This document shows positions 5,712 through 27,454 of a DNA stretch of 64,000 bases, piece by piece (the stretch's first letter is position 1; every line of letters begins with the position of its first letter). A program made the position numbers and the translations under genes. The notes beneath the pieces are model-generated. The model saw only the letters and a program-made list of their open reading frames with translations. It made no database searches and had not been told where the DNA came from. Source of the DNA: Candidatus Omnitrophota bacterium (GTDB taxonomy: Bacteria > Omnitrophota > Gorgyraeia > Gygaellales > Profunditerraquicolaceae); NCBI GenBank assembly GCA_025453445.1, contig JALOQJ010000005.1, positions 136-64,135 of the forward strand, in the 5' to 3' direction.

Positions 5712-5716
5712 CTAAA

Positions 5717-10886: not shown

Positions 10887-11869
10887 AGAAAAGAATATTG
10901 AGCGGGATGCGGCCAACAGGAAAATTGCACCTCGGCCATCTGGTAGGTGCTCTGGATAACTGGATAAAATTGCAGGATGAGTATGAATGTTTTTTTATGG
11001 TTGCTGATTGGCATGCTCTTATGGGCGAATATGAAAAACCGCAAATTTTGCCTGAGTTTATCATTGATAACGTTGCCGATTGGCTGAGTGCCGGAATTGA
11101 TCCAGAAAAAGCCGTTCTATTCATTCAGTCGCAAGTACCTGAGCATCTGGAATTACAGATGATTTTTTCCTGCCTGACGCCTTTAGGCTGGCTGGAAAGA
11201 TGCCCGACGTATAAAGAACAATTGCGTGAGGTAAAAACCCGTGACTTACATACATATGGTTTTTTAGGCTATCCTGTATTGCAGGCAGCAGATATCCTGC
11301 TTTATAAAGCAGGTAAGGTGCCGGTAGGGGAAGATCAGCTGCCGCATCTGGAACTCACCCGGGAAATTGCCCGGCGTTTTAACAGCCTATATAATCATGA
11401 AGTTTTTTCTGATCCGGGGGCGATATTAACCAAGACTCCGCGGCTTTTAGGCTTAGATGGCAGAAAGATGAGCAAAAGCTATGACAATACAATTAATCTT
11501 TCTGATTCCGAAGATATTATAAAAAAGAAAATTTCTAATATGATTACCGATCCGGAAAGGATCAAGCTTGTTGATCCGGGCCATCCATCGGTTTGTAATG
11601 TTTTTGCTTATTACGCGGTATTTTTTCCTGAAATGAAGGATGAGCTGCATAAAGCTTGCGCGGATGCGGGATTAGGCTGTGTAGAGTGCAAGAAACGGCT
11701 GGCTTCCTGTTTGATAGAATTATTAAAGCCGATCCAGAAAAAACGCCATGATTTTTTAAAAGATAAGCAAATGATTTTAAAGATTCTCGAAGATGGAAAG
11801 GCCAGGGCTTCGGCTGTTGCCAGTGCAACAATCAGAGAAGTAAAGGCTGCAATGAAATTATCCCTATGA
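10883..11869 (+). CDS. trpS: Tryptophanyl-tRNA synthetase
   Basis: Class I HIGH-type motif (TGKLHLGH) and KMSKS. Length is 328 aa. Confidence 0.95.
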   Translation: MKKRILSGMRPTGKLHLGHLVGALDNWIKLQDEYECFFMVADWHALMGEYEKPQILPEFIIDNVADWLSAGIDPEKAVLFIQSQVPEHLELQMIFSCLTPLGWLERCPTYKEQLREVKTRDLHTYGFLGYPVLQAADILLYKAGKVPVGEDQLPHLELTREIARRFNSLYNHEVFSDPGAILTKTPRLLGLDGRKMSKSYDNTINLSDSEDIIKKKISNMITDPERIKLVDPGHPSVCNVFAYYAVFFPEMKDELHKACADAGLGCVECKKRLASCLIELLKPIQKKRHDFLKDKQMILKILEDGKARASAVASATIREVKAAMKLSL

Positions 11870-12645
11870 GCTATAAAATAAAGTTAGAAATTTTTGAGGG
11901 GCCGCTGGATTTGCTTTTATACCTGGTGAAAAAAGACCACCTGAATATTTATGATATTCCGATTACTCAGGTGACGGATCAATACCTGCAATATATAGAA
12001 TTAATGCGGTTGTTGGACCTGAATATCGCCGGAGAATTTTTAGTAATGGCAGCGACTCTTCTGCAGATAAAATCAAAAATGCTCCTGCCTGCTGAAGAAA
12101 ATCAGCAGCCTGAGGAAGAAGTAGACCCGCGCGCAGAGCTGGTGAAGCGTTTACTGGAATACGAAAGATTCAAAGAAATTGCCGAAAATCTGCGGCAGAA
12201 AGAAATCAGCCAGCAGGAAGTTTTTAAGCGGCCCAAGGGCGAAGAGGCTGCAGCTGAACTGCCTAAAGAGCCGAAGGAAGTTTATTTTGAGGCGAGTATT
12301 TTTGATTTAATCAGTGCTTTTTCAAAAGCGCTGGAAGATATTCCAAAAGAAGTATTCTATGAGATTATTAAGGATGAATTTACGGTTGAGGAGAAAGTGC
12401 ATCAGATTCTGCATCTTTTACTGGTTGAGAATTCTACGCGGCTTTCGGATTTATTTGCTCAGGCAAAACATAAATTAGACATTATTGTTACTTTTCTTGC
12501 CGTTTTAGAGCTGATTCGCATGAAAGAAATTGTCGCCCGGCAAAAGGGCATATTCGATGAGATAGAGATTACCCGGAACAAGGAGAATATTATACCTTAT
12601 GACAAACGAGGGCAGGCTCAAATTACTGAAGGGCCGCAGCAATAA
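11866..12645 (+). CDS. scpA: Segregation and condensation protein A
   Basis: N-terminal FEGPLDLLLYLV kleisin motif and ScpA-sized product. Confidence 0.85.
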   Translation: MSYKIKLEIFEGPLDLLLYLVKKDHLNIYDIPITQVTDQYLQYIELMRLLDLNIAGEFLVMAATLLQIKSKMLLPAEENQQPEEEVDPRAELVKRLLEYERFKEIAENLRQKEISQQEVFKRPKGEEAAAELPKEPKEVYFEASIFDLISAFSKALEDIPKEVFYEIIKDEFTVEEKVHQILHLLLVENSTRLSDLFAQAKHKLDIIVTFLAVLELIRMKEIVARQKGIFDEIEITRNKENIIPYDKRGQAQITEGPQQ

Positions 12646-13678
12646 TACAGATCCGCTTAAAACCGCAAGCCCGGGGCAGGAGACTGAAGAGGATGTAGTA
12701 TTGAATATTTCTCTACGGCCGCAGAAGTTCACTGAATTTACCGGCCAAAAAGAAATTATTGATAACCTCAAAATCTGCCTTGCCGCAGCAAAAGAAAGAA
12801 AAGAGCCTTTAGAGCATATATTGCTTTCCGGGCCTCCGGGTTTGGGCAAGACTTCTTTATCACATATTATCGCCCATGAAATGGGCACAAAAATTACCGC
12901 TACCTCTGGCCCTGCGATTGAACGCGCCGGAGATTTAATCGGGATTCTTACTAATTTAGAAAAAGGCGATATCCTCTTTATTGATGAAATCCACCGGCTT
13001 TCCAAAGTGGTGGAAGAATTTTTGTACCCGGCAATGGAAGGTTTTCAGATTGATTTTGTCATTGATAAAGGCCAGTTTGCCCGGACAATTAAGTTCAACC
13101 TTAAGCCTTTTACTTTAATTGGTGCTACTACCCGCACCGGCCTCTTAGCTGCGCCGTTAAGGGCGAGGTTTGGTATTTTCCACCATCTGGATTTTTATAA
13201 AATAGAAGACCTGGCTGTAATTATTAAGCATTCCGCGAAAATTTTAGGTGTCGAGATAGATAACGAAGCTGCAGATGAAGTGGCCCGGCGTAGCCGCGGC
13301 ACGCCCCGCATTGCCAATCGGCTTTTACGCAGGATCCGGGATTATGCGCAGGTAAAGAAAATCGGCAAAATCAATCTAACAGTTGCTTCAGAAACGCTGG
13401 ATGAATTAGGTATTGATAAAGCAGGCCTCGATGATATAGACCGGCGGGTATTAAAAACAATTTTGCAAAATTACAGCGGCGGGCCGGTAGGCGTGGAGTC
13501 TCTGGCTGCTACTTTAAACGAAGAAACTGATACTATCGTGGATACAGTTGAGCCTTTTTTATTAAAAGCAGGCTATATTAAGCGCACTTCCCGCGGCAGG
13601 CTGGCTACCAAATTATCCTTCGAGCATTTCGGGTTAAAATACAATAAAGAGAAGCAGGAAGAGTTGTTTGAGAAGTAG
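12599..13678 (+). CDS. ruvB: Holliday junction ATP-dependent DNA helicase RuvB
   Basis: LRP...F..F.GQ N-terminal motif, Walker A GPPGLGKTSL, sensor and arginine-finger regions. No ruvA is adjacent, and the true start may lie downstream of the long overlap with scpA. Confidence 0.9.
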   Translation: MTNEGRLKLLKGRSNNTDPLKTASPGQETEEDVVLNISLRPQKFTEFTGQKEIIDNLKICLAAAKERKEPLEHILLSGPPGLGKTSLSHIIAHEMGTKITATSGPAIERAGDLIGILTNLEKGDILFIDEIHRLSKVVEEFLYPAMEGFQIDFVIDKGQFARTIKFNLKPFTLIGATTRTGLLAAPLRARFGIFHHLDFYKIEDLAVIIKHSAKILGVEIDNEAADEVARRSRGTPRIANRLLRRIRDYAQVKKIGKINLTVASETLDELGIDKAGLDDIDRRVLKTILQNYSGGPVGVESLAATLNEETDTIVDTVEPFLLKAGYIKRTSRGRLATKLSFEHFGLKYNKEKQEELFEK

Positions 13679-13699
13679 TTTCGCGTCTGCCTTGTCCAG

Positions 13700-13800
13700 T
13701 TTCTCGCTCATTGATATTGAGCGGGTCCTGTCTGCCGATCCACCTCGCCGTCCTCGCTATTCGCTGCGGGCGGCAAGGTCTTCGTCTCGGCAGTCACCCG
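13700..13800 (+). repeat. Diverged, truncated family-2-like GC-rich element
   Basis: It shares gagcgggtcctgtc, cctcgccgtcctcgct and cagtcacccgcaag with the 270-nt family-2 repeats at 21484 and 22851, in the same orientation. Confidence 0.4.
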
Positions 13801-13805
13801 CAAGC

Positions 13806-13837
13806 AATGAATTCGCTCGAAATCCGTCATATTCATT
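13806..13837. repeat. Mini-hairpin whose arms reproduce the family-1 terminal inverted repeats (aatgaattcg...catattcatt)
   Basis: AATGAAT and ATTCATT arms flank a 12-nt spacer and are near-identical to the AATGAATCTG / CAGATTCATT ends of the 237-nt element. Confidence 0.5.
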
Positions 13838-13879
13838 TAAAGCTTATATTAGCGGTTGGCTTGGCTGGGATTTCGAGTA

Positions 13880-13919
13880 CCACAGAGTAGCTGACGTTTA
13901 AACGTCAGCTACTCTGTGG
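13880..13919. repeat. 40-bp perfect palindrome (ccacagagtagctgacgttt|aaacgtcagctactctgtgg)
   Basis: Read directly from the sequence. The two 20-nt arms are perfect reverse complements with no loop. Confidence 0.95.
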
Positions 13920-13937
13920 ATAACTTTCAAGATTCCG

Positions 13938-13961
13938 CAAAAACACAGTCAAGACCCACGC
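13938..13961 (+). repeat. 21-nt motif copy (caaaaacacagtcaagacccacgc)
   Basis: It matches AAAACACAGACAAGACACACG with 2 mismatches, and the same motif recurs at 14228, 21500(rc), 22866(rc) and 23945. Confidence 0.8.
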
Positions 13962-13976
13962 TATGATAGGTTTTTA

Positions 13977-14213
13977 AATGAATCTGGCGCGTTTTCGAGC
14001 GAATGTTGATTTTAGGCAAAGCATGCTCGAGTATTTTTGGGAATTCCGATGCCCCGCGAATGCGGGGCAATATCGGAACGGCGATGCTGTTTGAGGACAT
14101 TTTGCGTATAGCGCAAAATGGCCGAGTTCAGCAGCCGCCAAAAATACGAGAGACCTTTGCCGGCCCCGAAGGGGCAAAATCGACTTTGAGCGAGAAAATG
14201 CGGCAGATTCATT
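13977..14213 (+). repeat. Family-1 GC-rich structured element, copy 1 (candidate ncRNA or MITE-like element)
   Basis: It is bounded by a 10-bp inverted repeat, AATGAATCTG...CAGATTCATT, that extends to a roughly 19-bp closing helix. Internal hairpins are ccccgc-gaat-gcgggg, cattttgcg-tata-cgcaaaatg and gccccgaaggggc. It is GC-rich against an AT-rich background. The second copy is at 23709. Confidence 0.8.
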
Positions 14214-14227
14214 AAGAGATACTTTAG

Positions 14228-14251
14228 AAAACACAGACAAGACACACGCGG
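14228..14251 (+). repeat. 21-nt motif copy (aaaacacagacaagacacacgcgg)
   Basis: Consensus copy, located 14 nt after the family-1 element and 15 nt before the queH start. Confidence 0.8.
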
Positions 14252-14265
14252 GACTATATAAACCT

Positions 14266-14799
14266 ATGAAACTATTACTACATATCTGTTGTGCGCCGTG
14301 CATGATTTATCCGCTTGAGAGCCTGTACAAGCAAAAAACTGAGGTGACGGGATTTTTTTATAATCCTAATATTTGTCCGTTACCTGAATATCAGAAACGA
14401 AGGCAGGCGATAGTAGATTTATCGACTGAGAATAAATGTGAAGTAATTTATTCTGAATACCTGCCGTCGGAATTCATGCAGGCAGTAGAGCTGAATAAAG
14501 AGCAGCCGGTCAGGTGTCTAATCTGCTGGCGGCTGCGGCTTGAGAAAACAGCTCAGGCTGCCAAGGACAAGGGATTTGATTCTTTTTCTACCACGCTCTT
14601 AGTCAGCCCTTATCAGGATCAGGAAGCGCTTAAAAAAATAGGTGAAGATATTGCCGAACAAGCCGGCGTGTATTTTCATTATGAAGATTTCCGGCCGGGG
14701 TTCAGGAAGGCGCATAATTTAGCGAAAGAAAAAGGAATCTATTGCCAGAATTACTGCGGCTGTATGTATTCGTATATGGAAAGATGCGAAAAAAAGTAA
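14266..14799 (+). CDS. queH: Epoxyqueuosine reductase QueH (DUF208)
   Basis: HICCAPC motif at the N-terminus and CxxC later in the protein. queA and tgt lie downstream. Confidence 0.8.
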   Translation: MKLLLHICCAPCMIYPLESLYKQKTEVTGFFYNPNICPLPEYQKRRQAIVDLSTENKCEVIYSEYLPSEFMQAVELNKEQPVRCLICWRLRLEKTAQAAKDKGFDSFSTTLLVSPYQDQEALKKIGEDIAEQAGVYFHYEDFRPGFRKAHNLAKEKGIYCQNYCGCMYSYMERCEKK

Positions 14800-15920
14800 A
14801 GATTTTTAAATTTGCTATATTTTTCATTTTTTGTTTTTTAGTCCCCGCACTTTATGCCCAAGCTGGTGAGGTTGTCCGTGTTGCCATTATTCAGGATGCG
14901 CAATCTCTGAGCCTGAAGGTGAAAGGGTTTTACGAAGTTGTTGATCCCAAGGATAATAAAGTTTTATATCGCGGCAAAGACTTATTAACCACTGTCACCG
15001 TCTATAAAAATGGTATTTTACTTGGTAAAATGGTATCTCGCTTAGATAAACTTTTGGTAAGAGCGGAGGATCCTTATGCAGTAATGATAAATGGCCGCAA
15101 GTTCAGGGGTGGTATCACGCTGGCTAAAAAAGATAATTTGCATTTATTAGTAGTGAATAGTATTGAGCTTGAGGATTATATTAAGGGTATTTTATACCAT
15201 GAAGCATCGCACTATTGGCCGCTTGAAGCATTAAAAGCGCAGGCAATTGCAAGCCGCAGTTACGCTGTTTATCAGAAGCAGGCAAGTAGTAGCCGCGATT
15301 TTGACCTGACCAGTGATGTGTATTCTCAGGTTTATGGCGGACGGACTTCTGAGCGTTACCGTACTAACATAGCAGTGGATGAGACAAAGGGAATGTTGTT
15401 AATGTACCAGGGTAAAATCCTGCCAGCCTATTTTCATGCTACCTGTGCGGGACATACTGAAGATGCAAACAGGCTTTGGAATATTAATATTGCGCCTTTA
15501 AAAGGGGTGGTTTGTAATTTTTGCCAGGAATCGCCGCATTTTTTCTGGCATGTGGTTTTAAGTTTAGAAGAAATTGAGAAAAAATTAAAGGGCACTAATT
15601 ATGCTATGAATAATATAGAAGGAATTATTGTTGTGGATAGGGATCAGTCGAATCGTATCATTAACCTGAAGCTATTCAACAAAGATAAGTCTAAGAAAAT
15701 CCCGGCAAAAGATTTCCGGAGTTTAATCGGAGCAGATATCATCAGAAGCACGAATTTTCAGCTGGATATTGCCGGTAAAGACGTTGTAATCGAAGGCAAG
15801 GGTTGGGGGCATGGCGTGGGTTTATGCCAGTGGGGGGCTTATTTTATGGCTAAAAACGGCTCCACTTATCAGGATATCCTCGCATATTATTATCCGGGCA
15901 GCGTAGTTAATTCCCAATGA
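14784..15920 (+). CDS. SpoIID/LytB-domain protein (amidase enhancer family), secreted
   Basis: Signal peptide after the M at 14784, and the C-terminal WGHGVGLCQWGA SpoIID signature. Confidence 0.8.
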   Translation: MRKKVKIFKFAIFFIFCFLVPALYAQAGEVVRVAIIQDAQSLSLKVKGFYEVVDPKDNKVLYRGKDLLTTVTVYKNGILLGKMVSRLDKLLVRAEDPYAVMINGRKFRGGITLAKKDNLHLLVVNSIELEDYIKGILYHEASHYWPLEALKAQAIASRSYAVYQKQASSSRDFDLTSDVYSQVYGGRTSERYRTNIAVDETKGMLLMYQGKILPAYFHATCAGHTEDANRLWNINIAPLKGVVCNFCQESPHFFWHVVLSLEEIEKKLKGTNYAMNNIEGIIVVDRDQSNRIINLKLFNKDKSKKIPAKDFRSLIGADIIRSTNFQLDIAGKDVVIEGKGWGHGVGLCQWGAYFMAKNGSTYQDILAYYYPGSVVNSQ

Positions 15921-16906
15921 AATTAGCAGAATTCGATTATCATTTACCCAAAGAATTAATTGCGCAATATCCTCTGAAGGAGCGCGATGAAGCACGGCTT
16001 TTAGTCGTGCATCGTGCTGACGGAAAAATCGAACATTGCTCTTTTAAGGATTTTACCGGATATTTATCCGCAGATGACCTGTTGGTTTTAAATAATACAA
16101 AGGTTCTTGCCAGCCGCCTGGAAGGAAAGCGTAAAACCGGCGGCAGGGTGGAAGTTTTACTTCTAAAGAGAAATGCGGATTCTATATTTCATGCTTTAAT
16201 TAAGCCGGCTAGGCTGAAATTAAACGAAGAAATATTATTTAATCATGGCAGCCTTAAGGCTGTGATTGTTGGCCGCCAAGAGATACGCTTTAGCGATTGC
16301 CAGACAGGTAAAATTTATGATTACGGCCAGATGCCGCTTCCGCCGTATATCAAAAGAAAACCCGAAGCTTTAGATAGCGTTTATTATCAGACGATTTATG
16401 CAAAGCATGCCGGAGCAGTGGCTTCTCCTACCGCAGGCCTGCATTTTACCGATGAAATACTTAAAAATATTGCGAGTAAAGGCATCAATATTGCTTATGT
16501 TACTTTGCATGTAGGCCATGGTACATTCAAGCCGGTTGTAGCGGAAGATATTAAAGAACATAAAATGGAAGGCGAAGATTTTTTTATTGATGATCAGGCG
16601 ATCGGCCTAATAAATCAAGCCCGTGAAAAAAAAGGAAAAATTTTCAGCGTTGGCACTACCTCTAGCCGGGCGCTGGAAACATTAGCAGGCGGTAAAAAAG
16701 AAGGATCAACTAATCTTTTTATCTATCCGGGCTATAAATTTAAAATGGTTGATTGCCTGTTGACTAATTTTCATTTGCCGCGCACGACTTTATTTATGCT
16801 GGTCTGTGCATTCTCCGGCGAGAAGCTCGCTAAAGAGGCTTATGCAAAGGCGATTGAACAAAAATACCGTTTTTATAGCTATGGCGATGCGATGCTGATT
16901 CTTTAA
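15917..16906 (+). CDS. queA: S-adenosylmethionine:tRNA ribosyltransferase-isomerase
   Basis: MKLAEFDYHLPKELIAQYP N-terminus typical of QueA, and the full length of 329 aa. Confidence 0.9.
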   Translation: MKLAEFDYHLPKELIAQYPLKERDEARLLVVHRADGKIEHCSFKDFTGYLSADDLLVLNNTKVLASRLEGKRKTGGRVEVLLLKRNADSIFHALIKPARLKLNEEILFNHGSLKAVIVGRQEIRFSDCQTGKIYDYGQMPLPPYIKRKPEALDSVYYQTIYAKHAGAVASPTAGLHFTDEILKNIASKGINIAYVTLHVGHGTFKPVVAEDIKEHKMEGEDFFIDDQAIGLINQAREKKGKIFSVGTTSSRALETLAGGKKEGSTNLFIYPGYKFKMVDCLLTNFHLPRTTLFMLVCAFSGEKLAKEAYAKAIEQKYRFYSYGDAMLIL

Positions 16907-18735
<1,829 letters not shown>

Positions 18736-18743
<8 letters not shown>

Positions 18744-19092
18744 AATCAAAATGATTGAACAGGAAGTGACAAAAAAAGAAATGCCGAAGTTTAATGTCGG
18801 CGATACGGTAAAGGTGTTGACTAAGATCCCTGAAGGCCCGGATAAGATCCGCCTGCATCCTTTTGAGGGCATAGTAATTGCCAAGCAGGGTAGTGGCGTG
18901 CGCACATATTTTACGGTGAGAAAAGTTTCTTACGGCGAAGGTATTGAGCGGGTTTTCCCTTTATATTCTCCGAATATCGAACGCATTGAAATTCTTCGTT
19001 CTGGTAAAGTACACAGGGCTAAACTTTATTATTTAAGGGGTAAAGTCGGTAAACAAGCCACGAAGATCGAATCGCAGGACGGAACAAAATAA
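18736..19092 (+). CDS. rplS: 50S ribosomal protein L19
   Basis: Sequence and size match L19, and the gene follows trmD. Confidence 0.95.
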
Positions 19093-19105
19093 AACTTTTT
19101 TAAGA

Positions 19106-19708
19106 GTGCTCTATTACGAGCGTTATTTTAAGAAAAAAGGTTTTGATTTAATTATCGGGGTTGATGAGGCAGGCCGCGGCCCGCTGGCTGGCCCGGTAGT
19201 GGCAGGGGCAGTGCTTTTAAAAAGTACGCGTTTTAAAAATCGTATTGACGATTCCAAAAAATTAACCGCCCTGCAAAGAGAAAAAGCTTATCCAGAAATT
19301 GTCGCTAAGTCTGTTTTTGGCCTGGGGATTATAGGCGAAGATGAAATTGACCGCGTGAATATCCTTGTAGCAACAGGCATGGCAATGGAGGAGGCGATAC
19401 GGTCTTTGTTAAAGAAGCTCGATCCCTACAAAAAAAATAATATCCATGTCCTTGTTGACGGCGATGTTAAGCTTAATTTAGGCCTTCCCTATACTAATAT
19501 TATCAGAGGCGATCAAAAATCAAAAAGCATTGCCTGCGGATCTATCATGGCAAAAGTCACCCGGGACAGGATGATGGTTTTTTATGACACGCTCTATCCA
19601 GAGTATGGTTTTCTGCAGCATAAGGGATATCCTACAAAAACACATAAAGCGGCAATAAAAAAATTCGGCCTTTCCCGGATACACAGGGCCACATTTTCCA
19701 GTGTCTGA
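19106..19708 (+). CDS. rnhB: Ribonuclease HII
   Basis: GVDEAGRGPLAGPVV active-site motif. Confidence 0.9.
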   Translation: MLYYERYFKKKGFDLIIGVDEAGRGPLAGPVVAGAVLLKSTRFKNRIDDSKKLTALQREKAYPEIVAKSVFGLGIIGEDEIDRVNILVATGMAMEEAIRSLLKKLDPYKKNNIHVLVDGDVKLNLGLPYTNIIRGDQKSKSIACGSIMAKVTRDRMMVFYDTLYPEYGFLQHKGYPTKTHKAAIKKFGLSRIHRATFSSV

Positions 19709-20081
19709 CGGGCATTTATCCTTAGGAAAGAGCGGTGAAGATATAGCAGTGGATTTTTTAAAGGACAACGGCTATAAAATTATAGCCAGGAATTATAAGA
19801 TCAAGCTAGGCGAGATTGATATTATTGCTGAAGATAAAGGTACCCTCTGTTTTGTGGAGGTGAAAACCAGAAGCTCTGATAAATTCGGGCTGCCTGTTGA
19901 GGCAGTTAAAAAAGCAAAACAACAACAGATCTCCCGGGTTGCCCTTATGTACCTGAAGGACAAAAGTTTATTTGATAAAAAATCCCGTTTTGATGTTGTT
20001 TCAATTATAAATTCAGCTGAAACACAGAAAATAGATTTAATTAAAGACGCCTTTGAATTAAGCCATCAATATGGCTACTAA
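19701..20081 (+). CDS. yraN: UPF0102 family endonuclease YraN
   Basis: Size and the ...CFVEVKTR motif are typical of the YraN family, and it follows rnhB as in many genomes. Confidence 0.75.
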   Translation: MSDGHLSLGKSGEDIAVDFLKDNGYKIIARNYKIKLGEIDIIAEDKGTLCFVEVKTRSSDKFGLPVEAVKKAKQQQISRVALMYLKDKSLFDKKSRFDVVSIINSAETQKIDLIKDAFELSHQYGY

Positions 20082-20102
20082 AAATTCTTTAGGAGAGCAT
20101 AG

Positions 20103-20663
20103 ATGTATAAAGAAGCTACTTTAAAAAAATACCTTGATGATTTGGCGGCTAAATTGCCTGCTCCCGGAGGCGGATCAGCTGCAGCAATGAATGCGGCAAT
20201 GGGTGTGGCTTTAGTGAGCATGGTGGTGAATTTTACTTTAGGTAAGCCAAAATACGCCCAATATGACACAGAGTTAAAGCATATCCTTAAAAGGGCGGAA
20301 GATCTTAGGAAAGAATTCTTACATTTAGTAGATTTAGATGTTACGGCGTACAAAAGTAAAAATATGCGCGATGCTTTGAATGTACCGTTTATGCTTGCCC
20401 GGCTCAGCTTTGAGGCAATAAAATTATGCCCTGTCTTGATTAAAAAAGGCAATATTAATTTGATTAGCGATGTGGTAGTAGCGGCGATTTTCTTAGAGTC
20501 AGCTTTTACCAGTGCCTATTGTAATGTGGATATAAACTTAAAAATTTTAGATGATAAAAAGCTTGCTTCTGTCATTAGGAAAGAATTAAGCGCGAAAGAA
20601 AAAAGAATCAAAAAAATCAGAAAACTCGTGGAGGAGAAAGTTGGCAAAATTATTAGAGGGTAA
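20103..20663 (+). CDS. Cyclodeaminase/cyclohydrolase family protein (FTCD C-terminal domain; methenyl-THF cyclohydrolase-like)
   Basis: The LPAPGGGSAAAMNAAMGVALVSMVVNFTLGK motif is characteristic of the FTCD_C / FchA family. Confidence 0.7.
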   Translation: MYKEATLKKYLDDLAAKLPAPGGGSAAAMNAAMGVALVSMVVNFTLGKPKYAQYDTELKHILKRAEDLRKEFLHLVDLDVTAYKSKNMRDALNVPFMLARLSFEAIKLCPVLIKKGNINLISDVVVAAIFLESAFTSAYCNVDINLKILDDKKLASVIRKELSAKEKRIKKIRKLVEEKVGKIIRG

Positions 20664-21483
20664 ACCGCTTGCGGAAAAAATTAAAGAAGAGATAAAAGCA
20701 CAAATTCAGGCATTGGGGATTAAGCCTGTTTTGGCTAGTGTTTTAGTAGGCGAGAATGCCGGTGCTGAAGCCTATGTCAAATCACAAAGCAAAGCCGCAG
20801 AAAATTTAGGGATTGTTTATCAATTTCATAAGCTTGATGCAGCTACAACGGAAGTTGCCTTAATTGAATTTATCAAGAAACTAAATAGCGATAAAAATGT
20901 TAACGGCATTATTATTCAGATGCCGCTTCCAGCGCAAATAGATTATAAAAAAATCTCTCAATTTATTTCTGCGGAAAAAGATGTTGAAGGCATGCATCCG
21001 GCAAATATAGGTAAAATAGTATTCGGTAAGGCGAAGATTCTACCCTGTACGCCGGCGGCAGTAATGGAGCTTTTAAATAGCACGGGCGTTGATTTATACG
21101 GTAAAGAGGTAGTGATTGTCGGCCATAGCGAAATTGTAGGCAAGCCTTTAGCGCTTTTGTTGCTTGAAAAATTTGCTACTGTTACAGTAGCTCATATCGG
21201 TACCAGCAAAGCTGGCAAATTAGAAGAGCATATTAAGAAAGCTGAAGTATTAATTGTGGCAGTGGGTAAGGCGGGGTTAATCAAAGGTGATTTAGTTAAA
21301 GAAGGCGCAATTGTCATTGATGTTGGGATCAATAGGGTGGATGGTAAGATTGTCGGCGATGTGGAGTTTGAAGCGGCAGAGAAGAAAGCAAGCTACATTA
21401 CACCTGTTCCCGGCGGTGTCGGTCCACTGACTGTAACTATGTTAATGCGTAATTTAGTCGAAGCTGCGAAATTACAAAAATAA
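20641..21483 (+). CDS. folD: Bifunctional methylene-THF dehydrogenase / methenyl-THF cyclohydrolase
   Basis: Length is 280 aa. The FolD motifs VGxxxxSxxYxxxK, PGGVGP and TVTxxH-like are present. Confidence 0.95.
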   Translation: MAKLLEGKPLAEKIKEEIKAQIQALGIKPVLASVLVGENAGAEAYVKSQSKAAENLGIVYQFHKLDAATTEVALIEFIKKLNSDKNVNGIIIQMPLPAQIDYKKISQFISAEKDVEGMHPANIGKIVFGKAKILPCTPAAVMELLNSTGVDLYGKEVVIVGHSEIVGKPLALLLLEKFATVTVAHIGTSKAGKLEEHIKKAEVLIVAVGKAGLIKGDLVKEGAIVIDVGINRVDGKIVGDVEFEAAEKKASYITPVPGGVGPLTVTMLMRNLVEAAKLQK

Positions 21484-21753
21484 GTTCTTTGGATTTTTTC
21501 CGTGTGTCTTGTCTGTGTTTTTTCGGGTAGTTTACGAGGGGGCGGGTCCTGTCGAGGCATATTTCTTGCAGGAACGCACGATTTTCCCCGGCGTGGAAAA
21601 TCGCGCTCGGCTCCTCGGCCTCGCTCGTCCCAGACAAGATTAGTGCGGGGGACACCGTGCCCGCTCGGCCTGCGGACGTCCTGCTCGAATCGCGCCTCGT
21701 CAATCCGCTTCGACAGGATAGAAGTCGCGCTCAAAACCGGCCAAGTCACCCGC
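21484..21753 (+). repeat. Family-2 GC-rich structured element, copy A
   Basis: Roughly 95% identical to 22851..23120. It starts immediately after the folD stop codon. Its left end carries the reverse complement of the 21-nt motif at 21500-21521. It contains the hairpin cgattttcc-acgccgg-ggaaaatcg. Confidence 0.85.
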
Positions 21754-21769
21754 TAAGACTGGTTTAAAT

Positions 21770-22345
21770 ATGAAAAATAAAAATGTCTATATAATCGCAG
21801 GGCCGAATGGATCGGGTAAGACAACCTTTGCAAGGATGTTTTTGCCTGATTATGTAAGTTGCCCAAATTTTGTAAATGCCGATCTTATTGCTCAAGGGCT
21901 GGCTCCTTTTGAGCCGCGCAGCGCGGCGATTAAAGCGGGTAAACTTGTTTTGCAGCAAATTCATGAATTTGCCGGGCGTAATGTTGATTTTTCTTTTGAA
22001 ACAACTCTATCCGGTAAATCTTACGCGAATTTACTAAGTGAATTAAAACTAAAAGGCTATGCAGTATATCTTTTTTTTCTTTGGATTCCCAATACGGAGT
22101 TAGCAATAGCCCGAATTAAAGACAGAGTTAAGGAAGGCGGACATAATGTACCGGCTGAAGATGTTAGGCGGCGTTTCCGTCGTGGTCTCAATAATTTTTT
22201 CAAATTATATGAGCCGTTGCTTGATTCGTGGATGCTGTTTGATAATTCTCAGGCTAAGCCGGTCTTGATAGCAAAAAGGCGTAATGGCCACATGGAAATA
22301 ATAAATGAAAAATTATTTGAAGCAATTCAGGAATCTTTGAGGTGA
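21770..22345 (+). CDS. Zeta-toxin/AAA_33-like P-loop kinase (COG4185-like), candidate toxin
   Basis: MKNKNVYIIAGPNGSGKTTFARMF Walker A near the N-terminus and a roughly 190-aa zeta-like fold. Confidence 0.7.
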   Translation: MKNKNVYIIAGPNGSGKTTFARMFLPDYVSCPNFVNADLIAQGLAPFEPRSAAIKAGKLVLQQIHEFAGRNVDFSFETTLSGKSYANLLSELKLKGYAVYLFFLWIPNTELAIARIKDRVKEGGHNVPAEDVRRRFRRGLNNFFKLYEPLLDSWMLFDNSQAKPVLIAKRRNGHMEIINEKLFEAIQESLR

Positions 22346-22348
22346 TGT

Positions 22349-22501
22349 ATGAAAAAAAGAATGTCCGTAGAAGATAAGGCTGAAGCAGCGCTGAAGGCAG
22401 CGGTAAGAAAAGTTGTAGAAGAGCATAAGAAGACCGGCCGGCCTTTAGCAATATGGGAGAATGGTAGGGTTATGCAAATTTCTCCGTATAAGATAAAGTA
22501 G
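22349..22501 (+). CDS. Small basic 50-aa protein (MKKRMSVEDKAEAALKAAVRKVVEEHKKTGRPLAIWENGRVMQISPYKIK), candidate partner or antitoxin
   Basis: Not in the ORF table because it is under 60 aa. A GAGGTGA RBS lies 5 nt upstream, and the ATG is 4 nt after the kinase stop. Confidence 0.45.
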   Translation: MKKRMSVEDKAEAALKAAVRKVVEEHKKTGRPLAIWENGRVMQISPYKIK

Positions 22502-22519
22502 GTGTTAAGTTATAGATAG

Positions 22520-22849
22520 ATGAAAACAATTGTTCTTTTGACTATATCAAATGTGTTTATGACTTTTGCCTGGTATGGGCATCTGAAGTTTAAAAATTCG
22601 CCGCTCTGGATTGTAGTTTTAATCAGCTGGGGCATTGCTTTTGCCGAGTATTGTTTTCAGGTGCCGGCAAACCGTATCGGCTCTTATAAATTTAGCGCGG
22701 CACAGTTAAAGACAATTCAGGAAATAATTACTCTTGTAGTATTTGCAGTATTTTCTGTGCTCTATCTTAAAGAAGAATTCAAATGGAATTATGCTGTAGG
22801 TTTCTTGTGTATCTTACTAGCGGTGTTTTTTATATTTAAGAAGTGGTAG
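22520..22849 (+). CDS. DUF486/DMT-superfamily small membrane protein
   Basis: 109 aa with four predicted TM helices and a pattern resembling DUF486. Confidence 0.6.
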   Translation: MKTIVLLTISNVFMTFAWYGHLKFKNSPLWIVVLISWGIAFAEYCFQVPANRIGSYKFSAAQLKTIQEIITLVVFAVFSVLYLKEEFKWNYAVGFLCILLAVFFIFKKW

Positions 22850-22850
22850 A

Positions 22851-23120
22851 GTTCTTTGGATTTTTTCCGTGTGTCTTGTCTGTGTTTTTGCGGGTAGTTT
22901 ACGAATGGGCGGGTCCTGTCGAGGCATATTTCTCGCAGGAACGCACGATTTTCCCCGGCGTGGAAAATCGCGCTCGGCTCCTCGGCCTCGCTCGTCCTCT
23001 AAAGTTTATTTAGGGAGGACACCGTGCCCGCTCGGCCTGCGGACGTCCTGCTCGAATCGCGCCTCGTCAACCCGCTTCGACAGGATAGAAGCCGCGCTCA
23101 AAACCGGCCAAGCCACCCGC
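22851..23120 (+). repeat. Family-2 GC-rich structured element, copy B
   Basis: Near-identical to copy A except for an 18-nt equal-length substitution block (cagacaagattagtgcgg versus tctaaagtttatttaggg). It starts 1 nt after the stop of the upstream gene and carries the motif reverse complement at 22866-22887. Confidence 0.85.
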
Positions 23121-23184
23121 GAGAAATGAACTATTTTAGATAAGTACTCAACCAAAATAGCAAATTTGATCAAAGAGGGATAAA

Positions 23185-23688
23185 ATGGAAATCGAAGTTA
23201 TTAAGATAATCGTTTATCCGGTATTAGTTACTTTTCTTACGATAACGATAGCTAAATTTCATTTTGAAAAAGATAGAAAAGTAGAATATCTTAGGGCTAA
23301 AGATAAAGTAGCGATAGATTTAATAAGGTGTCTTTGTAATATGCTTACTCACATGTGGGAAATGGTGAATATCGATCGCTGGGTGGCTAATGGTAATTCT
23401 AATCCAGATCTTCCTCAGAAACGACTACAAGCTAGAAATAATTTTTACCAATCTAGGAATGATACTACTATCTTATTAGGACTTATGGGGTTGTATTACG
23501 GTACTAAAATAGTGGATAGGATATCCCAGCTTATATCTGATTTAAACGATATGGTGAATAGTAATAATTTTTCCGCTTTTGATAAGTGGGATAATTTTAG
23601 AAGAAAAAAGTTGTTACCCATTCTAAATAAAGTTCATAAGGAATTAAAGTATACCGTATTTGATAGACCGTTTTGGGATTTAGGTTAG
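23185..23688 (+). CDS. Hypothetical membrane-anchored protein, very AT-rich gene
   Basis: N-terminal TM helix (IIVYPVLVTFLTITIA). Codon usage is far more AT-rich than in neighbouring genes. Confidence 0.5.
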   Translation: MEIEVIKIIVYPVLVTFLTITIAKFHFEKDRKVEYLRAKDKVAIDLIRCLCNMLTHMWEMVNIDRWVANGNSNPDLPQKRLQARNNFYQSRNDTTILLGLMGLYYGTKIVDRISQLISDLNDMVNSNNFSAFDKWDNFRRKKLLPILNKVHKELKYTVFDRPFWDLG

Positions 23689-23708
23689 AGTAGTTTTGGT
23701 GTTTGATA

Positions 23709-23937
23709 AATGAATCTGGAGCGTTTTCGAGCGAATGTCGATTTTAGGCAAAGCATGCTCGAGTATTTTTGGAAATTCCGATGCCCCGCGAATGCGGGGC
23801 AATATCGGAACGGCGATGCTGTTCGAGGAGCATTTGCTAGAGCAAATGCGACGAGTTCAGCAGCCGCCAAAAATACGAGAGACCTTTGCCGGCCCGCCGA
23901 AGGCGAGGCAAAATCGACTCTGAGCGAGAAAACCGAC
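23709..23937 (+). repeat. Family-1 GC-rich structured element, copy 2
   Basis: It has the same AATGAATCTG...CAGATTCATT ends and the same hairpins as copy 1, with compensatory changes: gcatttgc-taga-gcaaatgc, and cgcc-gaa-ggcg. Confidence 0.8.
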
Positions 23938-23944
23938 AGATTCA

Positions 23945-23968
23945 TTAAAGCGTAAATACACAGACAAG
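23945..23968 (+). repeat. 21-nt motif copy (aaatacacagacaagacaaacgcg)
   Basis: Located 7 nt after family-1 copy 2 and 29 nt before the metF TTG start. Confidence 0.75.
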
Positions 23969-23996
23969 ACAAACGCGAAACAGTAAGGAGTGAAAA

Positions 23997-24866
23997 TTGA
24001 ATTTTAAAGAGAAGATACAGACTGGGAAATTTGTGGTGACGTCCGAGATTGGCCCGCCTAAGGGGGTTGAGACAAAGACTCTTTTGGAGGATGCGGAATT
24101 AATTAGGGGCAAGGTTGATGGGATTAATGTTACTGATTTACAAAGCTCAGTAATGCGCTTAGGTTCACTTGCTGTTTGCGCCTTGTTGAAACAAGGTGGC
24201 TTTGAGCCGATATTCCAGTTAACTTGCCGTGATAGGAATCGCCTTGCTTTACAGTCAGATGTTTTATCAGCTGCAGCACTCGGGATTGAAAATCTCTTAC
24301 TTCTTACTGGCGATCATCCGGCAATGGGCGATCACCCGGAAGCAAAGCCGGTTTTTGACCTTGATTCAGTGCAATTATTGCAGGTAGTAAAGAAGCTGCA
24401 GGAAGGCGCTGACATGAAGGGTAATAAATTAATTGGCGAGCCGCCGAAATTCTGCATGGGCGCTGTGGTTAATCCCGGAGCAGACCCATTGGAGCCGCAA
24501 ATAATAAAGATGGAGAAAAAAATTGCTGCTGGTGCGGAATTTTTCCAGACACAGGCAGTTTATGACATAAAAACTTTCGAGAACTTTTTAAATAAAACCA
24601 AGCATTTAAAAACTACGGTTATGGCAGGTATAGTTTTATTAAAATCCGCAGGTATGGCGCGCTACATGAATAAGAATGTCGCCGGAGTATTTGTGCCGGA
24701 TAATTTAATCAAGGAGATGGAAGAGACAAAAGACAAACAAGCTAAGTCTGTGGAAATTGCTGCGCGCTTAATCAAAGAATTAAAGCCAATGTGTCAGGGG
24801 ATTCATATTATGCCTATCGGCTGGGATAAGGTTGTACCGAGAGTTTTAGAGGCAGGTGGATTATAA
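23997..24866 (+). CDS. metF: Methylenetetrahydrofolate reductase (MetF-like)
   Basis: TTG start with an AAGGAG RBS. VTSEIGPPKG and the TIM-barrel MTHFR pattern are present. Confidence 0.8.
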   Translation: MNFKEKIQTGKFVVTSEIGPPKGVETKTLLEDAELIRGKVDGINVTDLQSSVMRLGSLAVCALLKQGGFEPIFQLTCRDRNRLALQSDVLSAAALGIENLLLLTGDHPAMGDHPEAKPVFDLDSVQLLQVVKKLQEGADMKGNKLIGEPPKFCMGAVVNPGADPLEPQIIKMEKKIAAGAEFFQTQAVYDIKTFENFLNKTKHLKTTVMAGIVLLKSAGMARYMNKNVAGVFVPDNLIKEMEETKDKQAKSVEIAARLIKELKPMCQGIHIMPIGWDKVVPRVLEAGGL

Positions 24867-24868
24867 CA

Positions 24869-27454
24869 ATGGGTAATTTGCCTCAGATCCCGGGTGCCAA
24901 GAAAAAAGGCGTAATATTAATTGATACTAAGGATGACTTAAGTAAATTAGAAGGCCAGCTCATTTTTGATACTGTCTGTATCGATGGACCGGAACAATTT
25001 TCTTTTAATTTAGCCAAGTCTCTGAAAGAAAAGTATAAAGTCGGGGTTAAGGTTGTAACTAAGGATGCTTTTACCGGCGAGTTACCCGGCGATATCGAGG
25101 CAATAAATAGCCCGATACAGGAAATCGTCGGTGAGGGCAAAGCAGAAGCAGTAAAATTTAAAAACGGAAAAGCTGTTGGTATAAGTCTGGTTTTATTTAT
25201 TAATCAGGAATTGACGACTGGCGCGGATCAAAATTGCGCCAGTGTTGCCTCTGTAGGCAAAGGAGATAATATGTCAGATGTCCTTATTCAATTAGGCACC
25301 AAAGGAAGCGAAGCAGTATTAAATCTCACCCGTGGCGCGCTGGAAAAAGCAATTAAAGAAAAAGGCACCGGGCAAGCAGTTAGTTTTCCCGAGACAAATT
25401 ATTTTTTCCCTCTGATTAATGCTTTATTAAAAATTGAAGTAAAAAATCTAGGCGACTGCCTTGAAGTTTTAAAGCAAGCCGAGGGTTTAAATAAAAATCA
25501 GGCAGCTGTTAATGGTTTTAATTTAGCTGCCCTAGGTGGAATATTAAATAAAGGTATTGCAACTTTGCTTTGTGAAGAAATACTAGCGGTTTTGGCCTGT
25601 GCTGATAAAACACATCCTCAAGAGGGTTATGCTGGATTTCTTTCCGATACTTTATTGCGGTCGTTGGGTATCCAGCTGGTCGATGGCAGAATCGCCGGGA
25701 TTGCTGTAATTTTAGGCCCGGCAAAAGATGAAGATGCAGCAGTGCAATTGGTAAGGGATTTTCAGAGCAGGAGTATTGTCAGCCTGCTGGTGGGTAATGT
25801 TGCTGGCAATACTTTTAAAAAGCAGCTGGAAAATAAAAAAATCGAGATGGGCCTTGAGAATTATATCGTGCCTTTAGGCGAAGATTACCTCTCGGCGATT
25901 TATGCGGCAAACTGGGCAGTGAGAGCGCCGTTAATGTACGGCGGGCTGAAGAGCGGCCAATGGCAGAATATTTTAAATTATACCAAAGACAAAGTTCCGG
26001 CATTCATCGTGTTGCTAACTCACGTTGATGAAGTAATTGTGGCCACTGGTTTGGGCGTATTAGCCATGGGTTTCCCGATTATTACTGATTTAGAAGTGCC
26101 TCAGTTGGGAAAAATCGATACTACTTTGTATGAAGCATTGGTTACGGAAAAAGATTACAAAAAATTAGCCGGTAAATGTATTGAAGTAAGGGGCCTGAAA
26201 GTCAAAATTGCCCAGATTCCTGTGCCTGTGCCCTATGCTGCGGCATTTGAAGGAGAACGGGTAAGGCGGGAAAATTTACATATCGAATTCGGCGGTAAAG
26301 CAAGCCAGGCATTTGAGTTTCTCACCACTAAGCAATTAAATGAAATTGAAGACGGCAAAGTGGAATTAATCGGCCCGGATATCGACCAGCTTGAGCAGGG
26401 CAGCAGGTCTATGCCTTTGGCAATTATTGTAGAAGTTGCCGGACGTAAAATGCAGAAAGATTTTGAGCCGATTTTGGAACGCCAGATTCACCGTTTTACA
26501 AATTATGCCATGGGCCTGATGCATGTAGGACAACGCGATATGAACTGGATCAGGATTTCCAAAGACGCTTTTAATAAAGGCTTCCGGATTAAGCATATAG
26601 GGGTAATTCTGCATGCTATGTTACATCAGGAATATAGTGCCATAGTTGATAAGGTACAGGTAAAGCTTTACACAAAACAAGCTGACGTAGAAAAATTATT
26701 GCCGCAAGCAATGAAATCCTATGCTGAACGCGATGAGCGTTTAAGCGGAATGACTGATGAAAGTGTGGATACTTTTTATTCCTGCCTTTTATGCCAGAGT
26801 TTCGCTCCGAACCATATTTGTATGATTACGCCTGAGCGCTTGGGTTTGTGCGGCGCTTATTCATGGCTTGATGGTAAAGCATCGTATGAAATTATGCCTA
26901 CCGGGCCGAATCAGCCGGTTGCTAAAGGTGTAGCAATCGACAAAAATAAAGGCGAGTGGAAAAATATCAATGATTTTGTTTTTGCCAAATCTAATAAAAC
27001 TATCGAGAAAGTAAATATGTATTCGTTGATGGATGCGCCGCAATCATCATGCGGTTGTTTTGAATGCATTGTGGCAATCATCCCGGAAGCAAACGGGGTA
27101 ATGGTTGTGCATCGTGATTATTCAGGGATGACACCCAGCGGTATGACTTTTACTACACTTGCCGGATCAGTCGGCGGAGGAGTGCAGACTCCGGGATTTT
27201 TAGGCGTGGGGAAACTTTATATTGCCAGTAAGAAATTTATCTCTGCAGAAGGCGGTTTAAAAAGGCTGGTCTGGATGCCTAAAGAATTAAAGGAGTTATT
27301 AGGGGATAAGCTTACAAAACGCGCAGAAGAGCTGGGTGTGCCGGACTTGCTTGAGAAAATTGCCGATGAAACCAAGGCTAATACTTCCGAAGAGCTGTTA
27401 AATTTTCTGCAGCAGGTAAAGCATCCGGCTTTAGAGATGGAGCCTTTAATTTAA
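24869..27454 (+). CDS. acsB: Acetyl-CoA synthase catalytic subunit (AcsB/CdhC-like) with a roughly 130-150-aa N-terminal extension
   Basis: A-cluster region motifs CLLCQSFAPNHICMITPERLGLCGA, SCGCFEC, VWMPKELK and a C-terminal KIADET...HPALEMEPLI. The C-terminal two-thirds aligns well with acetogen AcsB as I remember it. Confidence 0.85.
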   Translation: MGNLPQIPGAKKKGVILIDTKDDLSKLEGQLIFDTVCIDGPEQFSFNLAKSLKEKYKVGVKVVTKDAFTGELPGDIEAINSPIQEIVGEGKAEAVKFKNGKAVGISLVLFINQELTTGADQNCASVASVGKGDNMSDVLIQLGTKGSEAVLNLTRGALEKAIKEKGTGQAVSFPETNYFFPLINALLKIEVKNLGDCLEVLKQAEGLNKNQAAVNGFNLAALGGILNKGIATLLCEEILAVLACADKTHPQEGYAGFLSDTLLRSLGIQLVDGRIAGIAVILGPAKDEDAAVQLVRDFQSRSIVSLLVGNVAGNTFKKQLENKKIEMGLENYIVPLGEDYLSAIYAANWAVRAPLMYGGLKSGQWQNILNYTKDKVPAFIVLLTHVDEVIVATGLGVLAMGFPIITDLEVPQLGKIDTTLYEALVTEKDYKKLAGKCIEVRGLKVKIAQIPVPVPYAAAFEGERVRRENLHIEFGGKASQAFEFLTTKQLNEIEDGKVELIGPDIDQLEQGSRSMPLAIIVEVAGRKMQKDFEPILERQIHRFTNYAMGLMHVGQRDMNWIRISKDAFNKGFRIKHIGVILHAMLHQEYSAIVDKVQVKLYTKQADVEKLLPQAMKSYAERDERLSGMTDESVDTFYSCLLCQSFAPNHICMITPERLGLCGAYSWLDGKASYEIMPTGPNQPVAKGVAIDKNKGEWKNINDFVFAKSNKTIEKVNMYSLMDAPQSSCGCFECIVAIIPEANGVMVVHRDYSGMTPSGMTFTTLAGSVGGGVQTPGFLGVGKLYIASKKFISAEGGLKRLVWMPKELKELLGDKLTKRAEELGVPDLLEKIADETKANTSEELLNFLQQVKHPALEMEPLI

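Follow-up and report, generated by a model that had tools for sequence, protein, structure and literature searches.

The 64,000-nucleotide (nt) stretch analyzed here (contig JALOQJ010000005.1 of a Candidatus Omnitrophota bacterium, positions 136 to 64,135; hereafter, the window) carries two adjacent genes that are considered, with a probability of roughly 0.55, to form a self-contained, horizontally mobile, toxin-first type II-like toxin-antitoxin (TA) module, the smaller product of which represents a new family of candidate antitoxins. The first gene (21770..22345, + strand), delimited as an open reading frame (ORF) and characterized with Pfam, AlphaFold2 and Foldseek, encodes the candidate toxin, a P-loop kinase of 191 amino acids (aa) belonging to the short zeta/PezT superfamily type. 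The second gene (22349..22501, + strand), recognized from its ORF, its homologues, its pairing with the kinase, its dN/dS ratio and its AlphaFold2 model, encodes a basic protein of 50 aa, the candidate antitoxin or partner. The pair has the generic layout of type II TA systems, i.e., two small, co-directional and nearly overlapping genes that behave as one unit, occur in variable contexts and are found in mobile DNA. The evidence that carries this reading consists of the structure of the genes, the family, fold and catalytic residues of the kinase, the strict pairing and co-divergence of the two genes, their mobility, and an empty site in a close relative.

Gene structure and translational coupling

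The TGA codon of the kinase gene ends at 22345 and the ATG of the small ORF begins at 22349, leaving a spacer of 3 nt (tgt). An earlier, sequence-only reading of this DNA had placed the small ORF "4 nt later"; the adjacency was correct, and the figure corresponds to the start codon falling on the fourth base past the stop codon, not to the size of the gap. The ribosome-binding site (RBS), which had been called good, was located as a GAGG Shine-Dalgarno sequence (22339..22342, + strand) within the last kinase codons, 6 nt 5′ of the small-ORF ATG. With its RBS inside the last codons of the upstream gene, the small ORF is predicted to be translationally coupled to the kinase. The sequence of the 50-aa product was found to be exactly that quoted in the earlier reading. 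In the public record of the Candidatus Omnitrophica metagenome-assembled genome, the kinase is named "zeta toxin family protein" and the small ORF is listed as "hypothetical protein MUC39_01775", so that the latter, earlier described as unannotated, does have an NCBI entry, but it received no family assignment in any of the libraries tried.

A regional scan for promoters and terminators around the pair, sigma-70-like sites included, yielded counts not above the shuffled expectation. One weak sigma-70-like site is located inside the kinase gene (22119-22147, + strand; AAGACA-17-CATAAT, 9/12 matches), and it could supply the small ORF with a transcript of its own.

Strict pairing and co-divergence of the two genes

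Loci fetched by the kinase numbered 88 (80 from species-representative genomes and 8 from metagenomes), 81 of which were distinct, and the source genomes were labelled as Omnitrophota, Planctomycetota, Elusimicrobiota, Patescibacteria, Syntrophaceae, Clostridia, Verrucomicrobiota, Desantisbacteria and Ratteibacteria. In all 88 loci, the gene directly 3′ of the kinase was a homologue of the small ORF. The check proposed with the earlier reading, namely, whether the small ORF is kept next to homologous kinases, was thus answered positively in each of these loci and, additionally, in plasmid homologues of 45–55% identity, which are described below. The spacer between the two genes was −4 nt (ATGA overlap) in 25 of the 81 distinct loci and 0 to 3 nt in 48, and it fell within the range of −4 to +3 nt in 74; the small ORF likewise started with ATG in 74/81. 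The gagg[tc]aa/ATGA junction recurred in most of these loci, with the gagg sequence usually located in the last kinase codons.

Pairwise Nei-Gojobori comparison gave pN 0.10, pS 0.71 and dN/dS ≈ 0.06 for the small ORF and pN 0.16, pS 0.76 and dN/dS ≈ 0.08 for the kinase, with synonymous sites near saturation in both cases. Judged by these substitution patterns, both genes are protein-coding and under strong purifying selection, and the reality of the 50-aa ORF, supported also by hundreds of homologues of 49–52 aa, was upheld. The distance matrices of the kinase and of the small protein were correlated (Mantel r = 0.83, a value reached in 0 of 999 permutations), and the mean divergence of the two proteins was equal (0.285). 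Measured in this way, the two genes form one unit in inheritance and divergence.

The limits of this unit were sharp. Compared as DNA, the window and the other loci are alike from the kinase ATG (21769-21780) to the end of the small ORF (≈22460-22500), and nothing outside the pair is shared on either side. Across the 88 loci, no conserved upstream gene, upstream sequence or operator was found, and an upstream antitoxin or third gene was rejected for this reason. The nearest flanking genes of 70 loci (139 proteins) gave 170 Pfam families, none of which occurred more than five times; the commonest, DUF4143/AAA_14 and the methyltransferases, occurred five times each. Therefore, this diversity of flanking genes indicates that there is no third conserved component. 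Genes of TA or defence type were few among the neighbours (AbiEii twice, HTH_3 three times and GIY-YIG twice), and the genomic context differed even between kinases of ≈ 80% identity.

Family, fold and catalytic residues of the kinase

The assignment of the 191-aa ORF to the zeta-toxin-like P-loop kinases was confirmed by its match to Pfam Zeta_toxin (PF06414; a score of 41.1 bits where 22.3 are required, E 1.7e-10, over residues 56-147). AAA_33, the other family name attached to its Walker A motif in the earlier reading, scored slightly under the cut-off (24 bits, with 27 required). The protein is basic (isoelectric point (pI) 9.65); its N-terminus is MKNKNVYIIAGPNGSGKTTF, and the Walker A motif lies within ...IIAGPNGSGKTTF..., where the pattern GxxGxGK[ST] is represented by G11-P-N-G-S-G-K-T18 (feature span G11-T19). 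Among homologues of 30–87% identity, no variation was seen at G11, N13, G14, G16, K17, D38, E77, T78 and T79, and further R115, R119, G123, G124, H125, P128, R135, D152 and N159. In kinases of the zeta type, a catalytic Asp (D67 in zeta, D66 in PezT) deprotonates the substrate. D38 is the probable counterpart of zeta D67, the correspondence being drawn via the published residue numbering of Rv0366c and not from a residue-level superposition.

The AlphaFold2 model of the kinase (predicted local distance difference test (pLDDT) 84, predicted template-modelling score (pTM) 0.82) was compared with the Protein Data Bank (PDB) using Foldseek. The top matches were the AvrRxo1-ORF1 structures (4z8q/t/u/v; E 2e-9 to 5e-8, TMq 0.79-0.82, 19% identity), followed by zeta (3q8x and 1gvn, E ≈ 3e-7) and PezT (2p5t, E ≈ 5e-7) with TMq of 0.6-0.7, and polynucleotide kinases, PFK-2 and nucleotide kinases were all ranked below the zeta family. 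According to the conserved residues, the set of catalytic positions typical of zeta is retained, and the model falls with AvrRxo1, zeta and PezT, and not with housekeeping nucleotide kinases; the second check that had been attached to the earlier reading thus came out in its favour. At the level of sequence, the tie to the solved zeta toxins is weak: a broad family profile found PezT among the PDB sequences with E 0.043 and the RNA-repair kinase Pnkp1 (4xrp) with E 1.4e-4, and the single kinase sequence and a narrow profile gave only P-loop matches. Matches in PADLOC-DB 2.0 were similarly restricted to the P-loop (E ≥ 1e-3). No cognate epsilon/PezA gene was found 5′ of the kinase, where folD and a non-coding repeat are located.

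The GTXR motif, characteristic of recognition of UDP-N-acetylglucosamine (UDP-GlcNAc), is not present in the kinase: E77 is followed by T78-T79-L80-S81-G82, with E-T-T invariant and the Gly and Arg missing. Because T-T-L-S-G and not G-T-x-R stands after E77, UDP-GlcNAc, the target implied by the earlier reading, is an unlikely substrate.

The small protein and its family

The small protein is basic, as had been stated, with a pI of 10.2 (median of homologues 11.1, range 10-11.8); basic charge, however, is no hallmark of antitoxins, although it had been presented as one. A word-indexed search returned 218 homologues, nearly all of 49–52 aa and 68–80% identical, and HMMER, run exhaustively over 1.84 billion cluster representatives, returned 1,011 matches at E ≤ 1e-3, 55 of them at E ≤ 1e-10. 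The best 150 of the HMMER matches were almost all stand-alone proteins of 40–90 aa. The family signature is approximately [KR]A..AL+.AV..V.E.H++.G.PL.VW.[ND]GKVV, and A11, A14, A18, H26, W36 and G39 were conserved at ≥ 90% in an alignment of 150 diverse representatives. No family match was obtained in Pfam, NCBIfam, PADLOC or PHROGs, and by all these searches the protein appears as a member of a large, undescribed small-protein family.

Its AlphaFold2 model (pLDDT 82) consists of a disordered basic N-terminus, a helix (residues 7-29) and a beta-hairpin (33-37/40-45). Foldseek found no significant PDB match for this fold (best E 0.95), the Arc1 chains of 4z8q being included in the comparison. 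Homology to Phd/YefM (PF02604) was considered and rejected: the resemblance of the helix-strand-strand order to YefM residues 9-44 (alpha1-beta2-beta3) is one seen by eye only, sub-threshold Pfam matches to Phd/YefM occurred in 6/150 family members (best E 0.0016), and hmmsearch with the small-protein profile scored YefM at 1 bit. Two unusual members of the family were also encountered, namely, P0287 (112 aa), a contig-end fragment in which the C-terminus of a kinase runs in frame into the small protein, owing either to natural fusion or to a frameshift in sequencing, and P0261 (129 aa), which contains the small-protein domain in two tandem copies.

A protein of such strongly basic character may bind nucleic acids, and it is conceivable that the kinase itself phosphorylates RNA or DNA ends or a tRNA, much as Pnkp or T4 polynucleotide kinase (PNK) would, with the 50-aa protein serving as a basic specificity factor or as the substrate. 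The strongly basic nature of both proteins would fit this explanation, as would the position of polynucleotide kinases as the next-best folds after the zeta family and the profile match to Pnkp1 (E 1.4e-4), which is better than that to PezT (0.043). At the same time, the Pfam match is to Zeta_toxin and not to a PNK family, the best folds are AvrRxo1 and zeta, no phosphatase, ligase or Hen1 partners of RNA repair are encoded nearby, and no RNA-binding fold was recognized for the partner. We therefore regard a nucleic-acid-directed kinase as improbable.

Spread of the pair on plasmids and in distant relatives

A tblastn search of plasmids with the kinase gave 596 records. The best matches (40–55% identity) were from Synechocystis PCC 6803 pSYSG, Geminocystis, Legionella pneumophila, Nostoc, Crocosphaera and Parabacteroides, and in all four of the plasmid kinases inspected, the end of the gene was overlapped by an ORF for a "hypothetical protein" of 55–65 aa. 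Scored against the small-protein profile, these plasmid partners reached 40.3 bits (Nostoc), 27.5 bits (Legionella) and 15.5 bits (Synechocystis), the Parabacteroides one being marginal (6.5 bits). The surroundings of the plasmid pairs are typical of TA modules: the pSYSG pair stands between a DarTG-like pair (DUF4433 plus macro domain), a nucleotidyltransferase, the S subunit of a restriction-modification system and a PIN/DUF433 pair; the Nostoc pair sits between VapC pairs; and the Legionella pair adjoins a Tn3 transposase.

Five more distant kinases were inspected. Three of them (Piscirickettsia, Rhizobium and Lactobacillus; 30–36% identity) have a small acidic ORF immediately upstream, which is the canonical order, and these ORFs are unrelated to the small-protein family (0 bits or less). 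No adjacent small ORF was found on either side of the other two, longer proteins from Phaeobacter and Chroococcidiopsis (34% identity). Because three of the five distant kinases carry an upstream acidic ORF instead, the downstream protein is suggested to fill the antitoxin slot in a toxin-first clade that forms a distinct branch.

These contexts raise the question of whether the pair was selected as a dedicated anti-phage abortive-infection system, in which the kinase would be freed from the small protein upon infection; such an explanation overlaps with the TA module proposed here and differs from it only in the selected function. TA modules in general often act as defence systems, and some copies do adjoin AbiEi/AbiEii, restriction-modification, DarTG-like or PIN genes. 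However, most loci lie outside defence islands, no PADLOC family was matched beyond the generic P-loop similarity, and the pair is all but missing from phages, with only four distant matches among 50,697 phage records (INPHARED) and none in IMG/VR. A dedicated defence function is thus given only a small chance. Accordingly, of the "reverse-order TA or defence pair" suggested by the sequence-only reading, the TA part is supported to a degree by the pairing, the fold and the mobility, whereas nothing speaks for the defence part specifically, since defence and TA genes are only occasional neighbours and PADLOC adds nothing beyond the P-loop.

Partner copies without the kinase

Every kinase of this clade that was seen was accompanied by the partner. 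Partner copies without a kinase were observed at one Omnitrophota locus (L055), in which the small ORF occurs three times and only once after a kinase. An intact orphan copy follows an unrelated ParA-like ATPase gene and still has in front of it the final 24 nt of a kinase gene, with the RBS; the other extra copy, with a different N-terminus, follows an AbiEii gene and an ORF without family assignment that overlaps its start. All three copies are contained in 195-nt repeats, after which 44-nt palindromes follow. Survival of the partner without the kinase, and never the opposite, is what a toxin-antitoxin relation predicts, and the same pattern has been reported for arc1 (PMC4938570).

The orphan copies also bear on a reversal of roles of the type VII-like kind, in which the small basic protein would be harmful and the kinase would neutralize it by phosphorylation. 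Enzyme antitoxins exist elsewhere, and the invariant or near-invariant H26 and the S/T at position 6 of the partner could be modified. Under such a model, though, the intact orphan small ORF of L055, which persists without the kinase, would be lethal; moreover, the partner is hydrophilic and has no recognizable toxin fold. Such a reversal is scarcely credible.

As to the organization of L055 itself, it resembles a cassette array (positions 1145-1412, 2834-2920, 3547-3775 and 5678-5957) spaced by 44-nt perfect palindromes (GTAATTCTGGGGACATGTACATTTTGTACGTGTCCCCAGAATTA), with a DUF4143/AAA_14 ATPase gene located in between.

Chromosomal context and the empty site

In the window, the pair is located within a cluster for the methyl branch of the Wood-Ljungdahl pathway, in the order FTCD_C cyclodeaminase, FolD, the insert, MTHFR and the ACS/CODH beta subunit (window 20103-21483 and 23997-27454). 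Together with a DMT_6 (DUF486) membrane-protein gene (22520..22849, + strand; Pfam E 1e-49), the pair is flanked by two 271-nt GC-rich direct repeats that are 94–97% identical and have a period of 1,367 nt. Copy R1 (21483..21753), identified by repeat comparison, fills the folD-kinase spacer and forms the left edge of the cassette, and copy R2 (22850..23120) forms the right edge. The metagenomic contig L098 is syntenic with window positions 10990-26469 at 84–88% nucleotide identity and there shows the order FolD, a single repeat copy (10314-10603), an unrelated 136-aa ORF and MTHFR; the kinase, the small ORF and DMT_6 are all absent from it. The 1,367-nt cassette is therefore an indel between close relatives, produced either by insertion at the repeat or by deletion between its copies. 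DMT_6 is a passenger of this cassette and was rejected as a part of the module, since the window is the one locus in which it accompanies the pair.

Several features of the region are recorded as side observations. The folD-metF spot is hypervariable, with a 167-aa ORF without family (23185-23688) in the window and the unrelated 136-aa ORF, likewise without family, in L098. The 271-nt repeat (GC ≈ 62% against a background of ≈ 40%) is dispersed and intergenic, recurring at 76–84% identity in other intergenic contexts (L099-L102, and L044 at 1236-1330). It contains an internal hairpin, GATTTTCC...GGAAAATC, with three compensatory pair changes in L044 (GTGTGCC...GGCACAC), while folding of the whole repeat was not significant (z-scores −0.5 and −1.4). 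A known RNA was rejected as its identity, with no Rfam match at gathering or E ≤ 1 and no tRNA; a recombination site, a miniature inverted-repeat transposable element (MITE) or an RNA are the candidate natures of this repeat. Short copies of its 5′ end (TGTGTCTTGTCTGTGTTTTT) are present in the window at 13935-13960, 14228-14248 and 23951-23980 (minus strand), and a second repeat family, at window 13697-13880, is common to L098 (2915-3017 and 11080-11223) and L101 (10176-10350).

Proposed mechanism and its weighing

The toxicity of the kinase, its neutralization, the mode of binding and the substrate we infer as follows. The kinase would transfer phosphate from ATP to a hydroxyl group on a substrate that is an essential metabolite or of nucleotide type; UDP-GlcNAc is probably not this substrate, the best guess being a target like that of AvrRxo1, for example NAD, and the action of the kinase would result in growth arrest. 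The 50-aa protein would be made from the same mRNA by translational coupling, because its RBS lies in the stop region of the kinase gene, and could bind the kinase stoichiometrically, with its long helix blocking the nucleotide/substrate cleft. A block of this kind would be similar to that exerted by epsilon, PezA and Arc1 on their kinases. The nearest characterized relatives of the kinase (AvrRxo1, Rv0366c, zeta and PezT) are all growth-inhibiting toxins.

A number of points weigh against a TA module. The antitoxins of the zeta family known so far are acidic helical bundles, unlike the partner found here, and the partner (pI 10-11.8) and the kinase (pI ≈ 9.7) are both basic. No helix-turn-helix (HTH), ribbon-helix-helix (RHH), AbrB, Phd or other known antitoxin or DNA-binding domain was detected in the small protein, and alignment of its family profile with that of YefM by hhalign gave E 0.17 and a probability of 0.35%. 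With the toxin gene first and coupling of 1:1, it is unclear where an excess of antitoxin would come from. The conservation of both proteins is unusually strong for a TA pair, and the flanking genes are mostly housekeeping ones (CysRS, thymidylate kinase and epimerases) and not defence or mobile-element genes. Finally, the pSYSG kinase and its partner, which by position probably correspond to sll8004/ssl8003, belong to the pSYSG group sll8001-ssl8005 that was described as "related to TA modules" but failed the identification criteria of Kopfmann et al. (PMC4963859).

Part of the same evidence would suit a non-toxic kinase of small molecules or nucleotides, acting in salvage, stress response or cofactor modification, with the 50-aa protein as its regulatory or stabilizing subunit, the two being neither addictive nor growth-inhibiting. 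Very strong purifying selection on both genes with equal divergence, the frequency of the pair in Omnitrophota, where it is common, its mostly housekeeping neighbours, the lack of an antitoxin or DNA-binding signature in the partner and the absence of the UDP-GlcNAc motif can all be understood in these terms. What such an enzyme with an accessory subunit does not readily accommodate is the difference between close relatives in the presence or absence of the pair, its variable context even at ≈ 80% kinase identity, its location on plasmids and in TA/defence clusters of cyanobacteria and Legionella, the orphan partner copies, and the fact that the nearest characterized relatives are all toxins. 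For these reasons, it is held to be rather unlikely, and the toxin-first TA module is preferred.

The kinases of the zeta/PezT group are among the few families of TA toxins that act on metabolites and not on translation. The locus described here and the partner family of ≈ 1,000 clusters point to a distinct toxin-first zeta-like clade, with members in Omnitrophota and other uncultivated phyla, on cyanobacterial plasmids, in Legionella and, probably, in gut Bacteroidales. Should the partner prove to be an antitoxin, it would rank with the smallest antitoxins of protein nature and would have a new fold, and the substrate of the kinase would widen the known chemistry of the zeta/PezT family. The locus also illustrates that an ORF of 50 aa, although shorter than the limits commonly set for annotation, can supply the absent half of a known system.

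Comparison with known systems

The closest analogues of the pair are AvrRxo1-Arc1 with respect to gene order and fold, and Rv0366c-Rv0367c with respect to kinase size and motifs. AvrRxo1 of Xanthomonas oryzae pv. oryzicola is a zeta-superfamily kinase and has the structure that the kinase model matched best, and in AvrRxo1-Arc1 the toxin comes first, with a small neutralizing protein encoded immediately downstream and the pair conserved across varying contexts (PMC4938570). The toxin-first order with a small conserved downstream partner is shared by the 88/88 loci and the plasmid homologues described above, so that the order proposed in the sequence-only reading has a precedent within the same superfamily. 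At the same time, AvrRxo1 has 421 aa, its N-terminus serves type III secretion, and it is only 19% identical to the kinase in the window, and acts on NAD, giving 3′-NADP. Arc1 is also different, being an all-helical protein (3–4 helices) of 81–121 aa with a KExFD...YExxYY motif, whereas the partner described here, with 50 aa, a helix plus beta-hairpin, basic character and no YY motif, is not Arc1-like.

The zeta-like Rv0366c (PezT-Mtb) of Mycobacterium tuberculosis, a protein of 197 aa, is bacteriostatic and is rescued by the antitoxin Rv0367c (Tandon et al., PMC6362051). Its motifs are GPNGAGKS (9-16), Asp36, Glu75, Arg116 and His122, without GTXR, and its pocket was judged by the same authors to be nearer to that of AvrRxo1 than to that of PezT (PMC6362051). 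When compared by published residue numbers, the spacing of these motifs is the same as that of GPNGSGKT, D38, E77, R119 and H125 in the kinase of the window, and GTXR is lacking from both. However, the antitoxin PezA-Mtb (Rv0367c) is encoded upstream and is a 129-aa protein that is RHH/ParD-like at its N-terminus and PezA-like at its C-terminus, and no homology between it and the 50-aa partner was found.

The P-loop kinase fold, the Walker A motif, the catalytic Asp and PF06414 are also shared with epsilon/zeta and with PezAT of Streptococcus. The zeta and PezT toxins differ from the kinase described here in being UDP-GlcNAc 3′-kinases of 240–290 aa with the GTXR motif, and the epsilon and PezA antitoxins differ from the partner in being acidic three-helix bundles encoded upstream, with an HTH domain in PezA or omega as a separate repressor. 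A nearer relative is the pSYSG pair, in which the kinase (WP_041428288) is 54–55% identical and its end is overlapped by the gene for a downstream protein of 59 aa (WP_011153774); this pair is plasmid-borne, and its partner has diverged, with H26 and W36 not kept.

Our literature search, which included reversed-order zeta systems, found no description of the downstream partner family. The 2023 census of PezAT reported many "orphan" zeta toxins, for which partners were sought only upstream (PMC10532202). The chances are about even that the 50-aa helix-hairpin protein founds a large, unrecognized family of miniature antitoxins (≈ 1,000 clusters at 50% identity, with no entry in Pfam or NCBIfam) that neutralizes a short zeta-like kinase clade from the downstream position, that this family explains a part of these orphans, and that the kinase poisons cells via a substrate other than UDP-GlcNAc. 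The pair is a variant within the known zeta-type systems and not a new kind of system, while the family of its downstream partner is undescribed.

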